From: a virus
Strand: one strand, 5' to 3'
Virus record (IMG/VR): IMGVR_UViG_3300042562_001017
Location: 17,086-81,085 of that record
DNA: 64,000 bases
The position numbers were made by a program, and so were the translations under genes. The notes under the pieces are model-generated. The model made no database searches. It was not told the DNA's origin and was given only the letters and a program-made list of their open reading frames with translations. Numbering within the stretch: position 1 is the stretch's first letter; each line of letters begins with the position of its first letter. This document shows, in pieces, positions 269 to 468 of this stretch.

Positions 269-345
269 TAGCACCCTCTTTCTTATTTACCCCAACTAAT
301 CGTATAGATAGTTGCTTATGTTTAAGGATAAGAGTAGGGTTGCTA
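269..345 (-). ncRNA. putative multi-stem structured RNA
   Basis: Minus-strand nested helices ACCCU/AGGGU, UCUUAU/AUAAGA and CAACUA/UAGUUG, closed by UAGC/GCUA; intergenic. Confidence 0.4.
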
Positions 346-468
346 ACCCCTCTGCACTCAGTTGTAATAGATATATAAAAGCCGAGTTTTTACACAACAG
401 ATTTTTTACGTGTTCGTCTATTACAACTGCTCATCCTTGGGAAATGAGAATGGTGCATTAATTAAGCA
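341..468 (-). ncRNA. twister-like self-cleaving ribozyme (type P1, with long P5)
   Basis: Minus strand reads UGCUUAAU-UAA-UGCA-CC-AUU-CUCAU-UUCCCAAGG-AUGAG-[13-bp stem 359-371/417-429]-AG-UGCA-GA-GGG-GUUAGCA. P1, P2, P4, T1 (CCC/GGG) and T2 (CC/GG) can all form. Confidence 0.75.

Follow-up and report, generated by a model that had tools for sequence, protein, structure and literature searches.

The 128 bases on the minus strand at positions 468 to 341 of the window, by which we mean the whole stretch of 64,000 nucleotides that was analysed, represent one member of a large RNA family that is specific to phages and has a twister-like fold. The helices P1, P2, P4, and P5 of this family covary and are nested twister-type helices, and a pseudoknot, T1, that joins the loop L4 to the strand following a conserved GA is proven by covariation. 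Judging from the conservation of the sequence and from the arrangement of the neighbouring genes, the element is probably a variant of the twister class that would cleave itself between U460 and A459 and thereby process a polycistronic transcript. Twisters are among the best-studied small ribozymes, and what is described here is a numerous phage-specific branch that is missed by the standard covariance models. Because these models miss the family, surveys based on Rfam would undercount phage ribozymes. No publication describing this twister variant was found in literature searches.

The element and its family

The initial annotation had proposed that the parts of this RNA follow one another in the order seen in twisters. 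That order is correct, and each of the parts it had named is present on the minus strand where it had been placed. Reading from 5' to 3' on this strand, the 5' strand of P1 (UGC-U-UAAU, 468-461) pairs with the 3' strand at 347-341 (GUUA-GCA) and is followed by the 5' side of L1, consisting of U460, A459, and A458 (460-458), with the predicted scissile bond at 460/459. P2 is UGCA/UGCA (457-454 with 356-353), to which C453-G357 adds a fifth pair, and after it come C452, the inner nucleotide of the T2 pseudoknot, and the linker AUU at 451-449, the two together spanning 452-449. The five pairs of P4, CUCAU/AUGAG (448-444 with 434-430), carry the L4 loop UUCCCAAGG (443-435), in which C441-C439 are the 5' side of T1 and G436 and G435 are the 3' side of T2. 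P5, a perfect stem of 13 bp (429-417 with 371-359), encloses a variable insert of 45 nt (416-372). On its 3' side lie A358 and G357 (358-357), the latter being the partner of C453, and beyond the 3' strand of P2 (P2') there are G352 and A351 (352-351), which correspond to the general-base G of twisters and the A beside it, and then GGG (350-348), the 3' side of T1, which pairs with C441-C439. When the single sequence was folded with ViennaRNA the same nested helices were obtained, with an energy of -32.1 kcal/mol and a z of -2.5. A P0-like hairpin module is located upstream at 489-464, also on the minus strand, in which AAGCA (484-480) pairs with UGCUU (468-464). This module and the outer portion of the P1 5' strand share bases, and in the window's copy the upstream hairpin could compete with outer P1.

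The exact 19-mer made up of P4 and L4 was found at at least 13 IMG/VR viral loci whose flanks are unrelated, and a looser pattern, in which P4 and part of P2 were freed, was found at at least 120 viral loci. A structural filter was placed on the 3' half, which had to show A, purine, P2', GA, and GGG downstream of a P5 hairpin whose length is 12 to about 195 nt, and this filter was passed by about 113 distinct copies of the 139 pattern matches on viral contigs, among the matches listed. When 596 Gb of prokaryote genomes were searched with the same pattern, there were 95 raw matches and the same structural filter was passed by 1 of the 95, which shows that the filter is stringent and that the family is essentially phage-restricted. 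A covariance model built from the family, R1, was used to find copies that the pattern had missed, and the pattern and covariance-model searches combined bring the number of distinct relatives in IMG/VR viral contigs to more than 130, which is a lower bound, as are the viral copy counts in general except for two complete scans. The sole copy in the prokaryote collection (L397:3780-3928) is on a 104-kb contig that was binned with an Allosphingosinicella MAG, and since a contig of this size is phage-like it may be a mis-binned phage.

A blastn search of the GenBank phage collection with the region gave no match, and when the 67-aa protein flanking the element was used as the query the search recovered near-identical phages only, which were uninformative for covariation. 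In one run of a freshwater metatranscriptome, 5% of the sampled words were present and a contig of 202 nt shared the conserved core only. The P5 insert of this contig is another one, and it is a different family member that is represented in an RNA library; the run consists of contigs, which do not show the ends of molecules.

Tandem or closely spaced copies on the same strand were seen at L053:9205-9560 and L009:10122-10479 and, as three copies each, in L081 and L326; in L053 the second copy begins one base past the end of the first. A short form of the element is also recurrent, in which L4, P4', P5, P2', and GAGGG are kept and the 5' half reads UUAAUCAG(U/C). It is without the 5' strands of P2 and P4, a deletion of about 12 nt, and an intact copy is often a few hundred nucleotides away. 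This short form, which may have arisen by decay of a full copy or be a variant in its own right, is present at L009:9872-10020, L061:8437-8577, L101:12887-12997, L033:2426-2587, L018:7447-7634, and L112:1554-1677, and further in L518, L527, L534, and L540.

Covariation and the candidate active site

Pair counts and the covariation score are based on an alignment of 110 copies (A1), whose members were selected on the pairing of P2 and P4 and not on that of P1, P5, T1, or the 453-357 pair. In this alignment 89.9% of the cells were paired compared to 76.4% in shuffles, and the covariation score was 0.394 compared to 0.154 in shuffles, a level that was reached by none of 500 shuffles. With slid-partner controls on the same alignment, pairing fell to 32-46%. 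P4 was 99.5% paired, with double changes at all 5 pairs and about 30 stem variants, and P2 was 100% paired, being found as UGCA/UGCA and UGUA/UACA and, in the sample anchored on L4 and P5, also as UGCG/CGCA and UGUG/CACA, but both of these percentages are inflated because P2 and P4 pairing was used as a selection criterion. The basal 11 pairs of P5 (429-419 with 369-359) were 93% paired and contain double changes. P1 is weak in many members; 62% of its columns in A1 were paired, with many pair types and with double changes, and an uninterrupted run of 4 bp or more is formed with the copy's own 3' strand in 38 of 113 copies compared to 11 of 113 with a random partner. The linker between C452 and P4 is AUU, AUAA, or ACAA. 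P2, P4, and P5 were recovered independently when RNAalifold was run on the family. The initial annotation had made its reading depend on covariation in homologues, and such covariation is seen in the helices as well as in T1.

The base of P5, CAGUUGUAAUA/UAUUACAACUG, is conserved in sequence in most copies, and the distal insert is unrelated between members and varies in length from 12 to about 195 nt across copies. The sequence conservation of the P5 base is not explained by the ribozyme fold alone. The pair that closes P4 varies freely (C-G 74, A-U 15, U-A 15, and G-C 5), and next to it comes the extra U in L4 that the initial annotation had reported, which is present and is invariant across the family. 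This U443 is juxtaposed to G435, and as the juxtaposition never varies it gives no covariation signal; the U-G juxtaposition at 443/435 could substitute for the invariant G-C that closes P4 in twisters.

In T1 the majority combination of L4 and the 3' strand is CCC/GGG, and the others are CCA/UGG in 15 copies, CAC/GUG in nine, and UCC/GGA in two, with almost no mismatches. All 15 true members with CCA in L4 carry GA-UGG, and the copies with CAC/GUG and UCC/GGA are among those found by covariance model R1 and not by the pattern. Together CCA/UGG, CAC/GUG, and UCC/GGA thus provide a compensatory double change in each of the three pairs of T1.

T2 had been described in the initial annotation as a compensatory CC/GG variant of the usual pseudoknot, and this description is correct in part. 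The inner pair, C452-G436, is invariant and shows no compensatory change: C452 is present in 110 of 110 aligned copies, a single U, making a U-G pair, was seen in a model-found copy, and a complete scan for G436 variants returned no true member, so that G436 never varies. The outer nucleotide, C453, is always a pyrimidine and shows Watson-Crick covariation with G357 (C-G in 94 copies, U-A in 16, and none unpaired), and from this perfect covariation it follows that C453 extends P2. The outer T2 pair is therefore C or U with G, and not G with C. Pairing of C453 with G435 is also compatible with the data, as the outer G435 of L4 is replaced by A in two intact copies and both of them carry U at position 13, so that a U-A pair is preserved. 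Since U13 is present in about 15% of the members, these two copies give modest support to the outer pair of T2. A separate scan for variants of the outer G gave false positives only, among the matches listed. In a simple helix the partners G357 and G435 of C453 are mutually exclusive, so that the bases may form a triple, T2 may be shifted, or the RNA may alternate between conformers.

The candidate active site was followed in an unconstrained sample of 110 distinct copies that was obtained by a search anchored only on L4 and the conserved P5 base. In this sample the nucleotide at -1 is U in 96 copies, C in 2, and A in 1, the AA after the candidate cut site is present in 99 of 99, and the GA before T1 is present in 91 of the 93 parsed copies. 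In the 110-copy alignment A1 both this AA and the GA are invariant. The U and AA of L4 were fixed by the search anchors and their constancy is not independent, and the same is true of several core positions. Both the cut site at 460/459 and the catalytic G352 that had been predicted from the single sequence are thus positions that are near-invariant family-wide. It has been shown for twisters that the general acid is the A located 3' of the cut and that the general base is a G, and that both are intolerant of change (PMC5408937; PMC11662667, the CHiTA study). The twister rule given in PMC5408937 would place the scissile bond of this element between U460 and A459, and by analogy with the twisters studied in PMC5408937 and PMC11662667 a catalytic role is predicted for G352.

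Genomic setting and proposed mechanism

The source genome, an IMG/VR virus record of 81 kb, has giant ORFs as well as matches to crAss-like PHROGs for terminase, portal, and major head, and the element is present in it as one copy. The element takes up the greater part of a 265-nt gap that separates a 67-aa ORF (699-496) from a 72-aa ORF (231-13), both of which are part of a tightly packed leftward operon of small ORFs. In the window no promoter or terminator was called adjoining the element. The processing of a polycistronic message, which was the role first suggested for it, agrees with this setting in a co-directional operon of small genes. In the family, 100 of 115 copies are intergenic, and the nearest ORFs are co-oriented with the element in ratios of 89:21 upstream and 79:25 downstream; the stop of the preceding ORF is at a median distance of 183 nt and the start of the following one at 143 nt. 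Over 45 nt on their upstream side the copies have a more stable fold than control windows (median -8.2 compared to -4.9 kcal/mol). Many copies are directly 3' of a hairpin and a U-tract, the Us of which form the P1 5' strand, and many are then followed by an A-rich leader and ATG. The proteins encoded on either side are small, with a median length of 80 aa, and unrelated to one another (128 clusters among 174), and clustering of the neighbouring proteins revealed no recurrent partner gene.

Several other features were observed near members of the family. Between many members and the following ATG, for example in L019, L040, L058, L107, L114, L128, and L130, there are 30-60 nt rich in A, in which AACUUA-like words recur and which end in ...AACUU-AUG, and this stretch may be a conserved translation leader. 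An Rfam-certified hatchet (79.3 bits) is at L026:6387-6553, and two copies of the element lie about 1 kb downstream of it on the same strand. At L016:5482-5724 and L102:3230-3429 a tRNA-like gene is directly 3' of the element on the same strand, and that of L016, which is about 100 nt long, was called by Rfam and not by ARAGORN. A tmRNA gene (73 bits) is at L101:9393-9837 on a phage contig that carries the element.

In the window the 26-nt hairpin module (464-489) is repeated at 1202-1227 with 92% identity, and the two repeats bracket an HNH-like 161-aa gene and the 67-aa gene, the second repeat being just upstream of the HNH-like gene. These bracketing repeats suggest a cassette insertion beside the element. 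The same hairpin module is present upstream of family members in other phages, where its stem covaries. Between the element and the 72-aa ORF the minus strand of the window (340-232) folds well, with ACCCUACUCUUAU... pairing with ...AUAAGAAAGAGGGU. The initial annotation had suggested, as a second role, that cleavage releases a structured RNA downstream. This finds no support, as 340-232 is not conserved elsewhere, and since no homologue of it was found in the fetched loci that reading was dropped.

What the element does is most likely, as far as its sequence and setting can tell, to cut a long phage message between two small genes. Cleavage and its consequences, which we infer from the computed fold and conservation, would proceed as follows. 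The element would be made within the leftward polycistronic transcript that covers the small genes, and as the RNA folds L4 would dock onto the internal loop through T1, which has the support of covariation, and through a reduced or altered T2, which has it in part. The backbone would then be cleaved by the RNA itself between U460 and A459. This would leave the upstream message of the 67-aa gene ending just past the hairpin with a 2',3'-cyclic phosphate, and the downstream message of the 72-aa gene would start with a 5'-OH and a compact ribozyme fold; across the family, a downstream message or a tRNA would likewise carry the folded ribozyme and a 5'-OH at its head. The stability and the translation of the two messages could then be different. 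The context of the family, which is intergenic and co-oriented with the genes, has a hairpin upstream, and is found in the company of tRNAs and a hatchet, makes self-cleavage at N^AA in polycistronic transcripts the best supported reading. What speaks against a self-cleaving twister is that there is no Rfam match at E<=10, that the canonical GC/GC T2 is absent, that P4 is closed by a freely varying pair, with an extra U, and not by the invariant G-C, that P1 is weak in many members, and that in the window the upstream hairpin may compete with outer P1. The role of twisters in bacteria and phages is still an open question (PMC6765202). As the setting is so consistent, with small co-directional genes and with the element following a hairpin and preceding an A-rich leader or a tRNA, the hypothesis of message processing is directly testable.

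The same departures from the twister consensus bear on an alternative that we consider unlikely and still worth weighing, namely that the element is a conserved twister-like structured RNA that does not cleave itself and acts as a protein-binding or stabilising 5'-UTR element or as a site for a host or phage RNase. The conserved base of P5, whose sequence conservation catalysis alone does not explain, would then be the functional feature. The lack of an Rfam match and the non-canonical T2 and P4 closing pair also favour this alternative, and T2-type pseudoknots were sensitive to defects in published twister assays, where such defects usually lowered the activity (PMC11662667). However, invariance is found precisely at the active-site and T1 nucleotides of twisters, which would not be needed for a mere scaffold, and the element co-occurs with hatchet ribozymes and tRNAs in RNA-processing islands.

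The two partners of the pyrimidine at 453, G357 in P2 and G435 in T2, are exclusive, and if selection kept both pairings the family would be a natural conformationally gated twister, a reading that we hold to be doubtful. The partner of 453 would in that case be picked by the conserved P5 base together with the variable insert, or by a factor binding to them, and this choice would decide when or whether the message is cut. If this were true, phages would control genes by means of a natural self-cleaving ribozyme that is allosteric.

More improbable again is that the conservation acts at the level of DNA, with the core of about 60 nt being a joint for homologous recombination by which cassettes of small genes are swapped and the RNA fold being secondary. 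Identical cores are indeed found between wholly unrelated small genes, decayed or partial copies and tandem copies exist, and the 26-mer repeats in the window bracket the HNH-like two-gene cassette beside the element. But the compensatory changes in four helices and a pseudoknot show that pairing in the RNA, and not identity of the DNA, has been selected for, and the orientation of the element is tied to the direction of transcription. A role as a DNA module is also compatible with ribozyme function and need not replace it. Finally, that an AT-rich intergenic hairpin resembles the twister consensus by chance, for which the single-sequence z of only -2.5 and the lack of an Rfam match could be cited, has next to no probability and is refuted by the covariation among more than 130 homologues and by the control scan of cellular genomes, in which the filter passed 1 of 95 matches compared to about 113 of 139 viral ones.

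Comparison with twister, twister-sister, and hatchet ribozymes

The reading of the element as a self-cleaving RNA of the twister kind can be set against what is known of twisters, the comparison having been made through published descriptions and the Rfam models. Twisters are built of P1, P2, and P4 with optional P0, P3, and P5, they have a U-A cleavage site and a T1 of three Watson-Crick pairs, and in their T2 a conserved GC in L2 pairs with GC in L4 (PMC5408937, PMC6154101). An essentially invariant G-C extends P4, a conserved U.A trans pair is present in L4, and P5 is found in about 1% of the catalogued twisters (PMC5408937, PMC6154101). Compared with the twister of type P1 (RF03160), the phage family, whose architecture is likewise of type P1, has the same order of P1, N^AA, P2, linker, P4, L4, P5, P2', GA, T1, and P1'. 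It also shares with twisters a U-A at the predicted cut, the T1 of three Watson-Crick pairs, the inner C-G of T2, the conserved U and AA in L4, a P1 that is weak or dispensable, a P0-like hairpin upstream, and the association with phage genes. Unlike in twisters, the outer pair of T2 is Y-G and not G-C, and this Y also covaries with the purine 5' of P2'; L4 has the extra U, and no invariant G-C closes P4. Every member of the family has a P5 with a conserved base and a variable insert, unlike the small fraction of twisters with this helix, and the family differs further in being confined to phage contigs and in having no covariance-model match.

The initial annotation had looked to the Rfam twister models for a check on its reading, and no match to RF03160, RF03154, or RF02684 was obtained with the window sequence, either at gathering or at E<=10. 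When the same Rfam search was done with a member that has a 12-nt P5 and with five records that contain short-P5 members, there was likewise no twister match at E<=10. The only matches were noise, to mir-994, Corona_pk3, Ysr283, and SNORA26. As neither twister nor twister-sister models matched at E<=10, the family is classed as a variant of the twister kind and not as a catalogued member. Its altered T2, the missing G-C closing pair, and the conserved P5 base offer natural variation for asking which tertiary contacts are needed for catalysis.

The twister-sister ribozyme (RF02681) has a P4 terminal loop that resembles the one in the family, its cut is likewise followed by an A, and it is found in the vicinity of phage genes. 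It has no pseudoknot, however, and cleaves on the opposite strand of the internal loop (PMC5408937, PMC6154101), whereas the family has T1. The covariation-proven T1 together with the lack of a match to RF02681 at E<=10 speaks against the element being a twister-sister. Hatchets (RF02678), which according to one preprint are largely confined to Crassvirales and of which none was found in the window's own genome, are unrelated to the family in fold and consensus, and they occupy the same niche.
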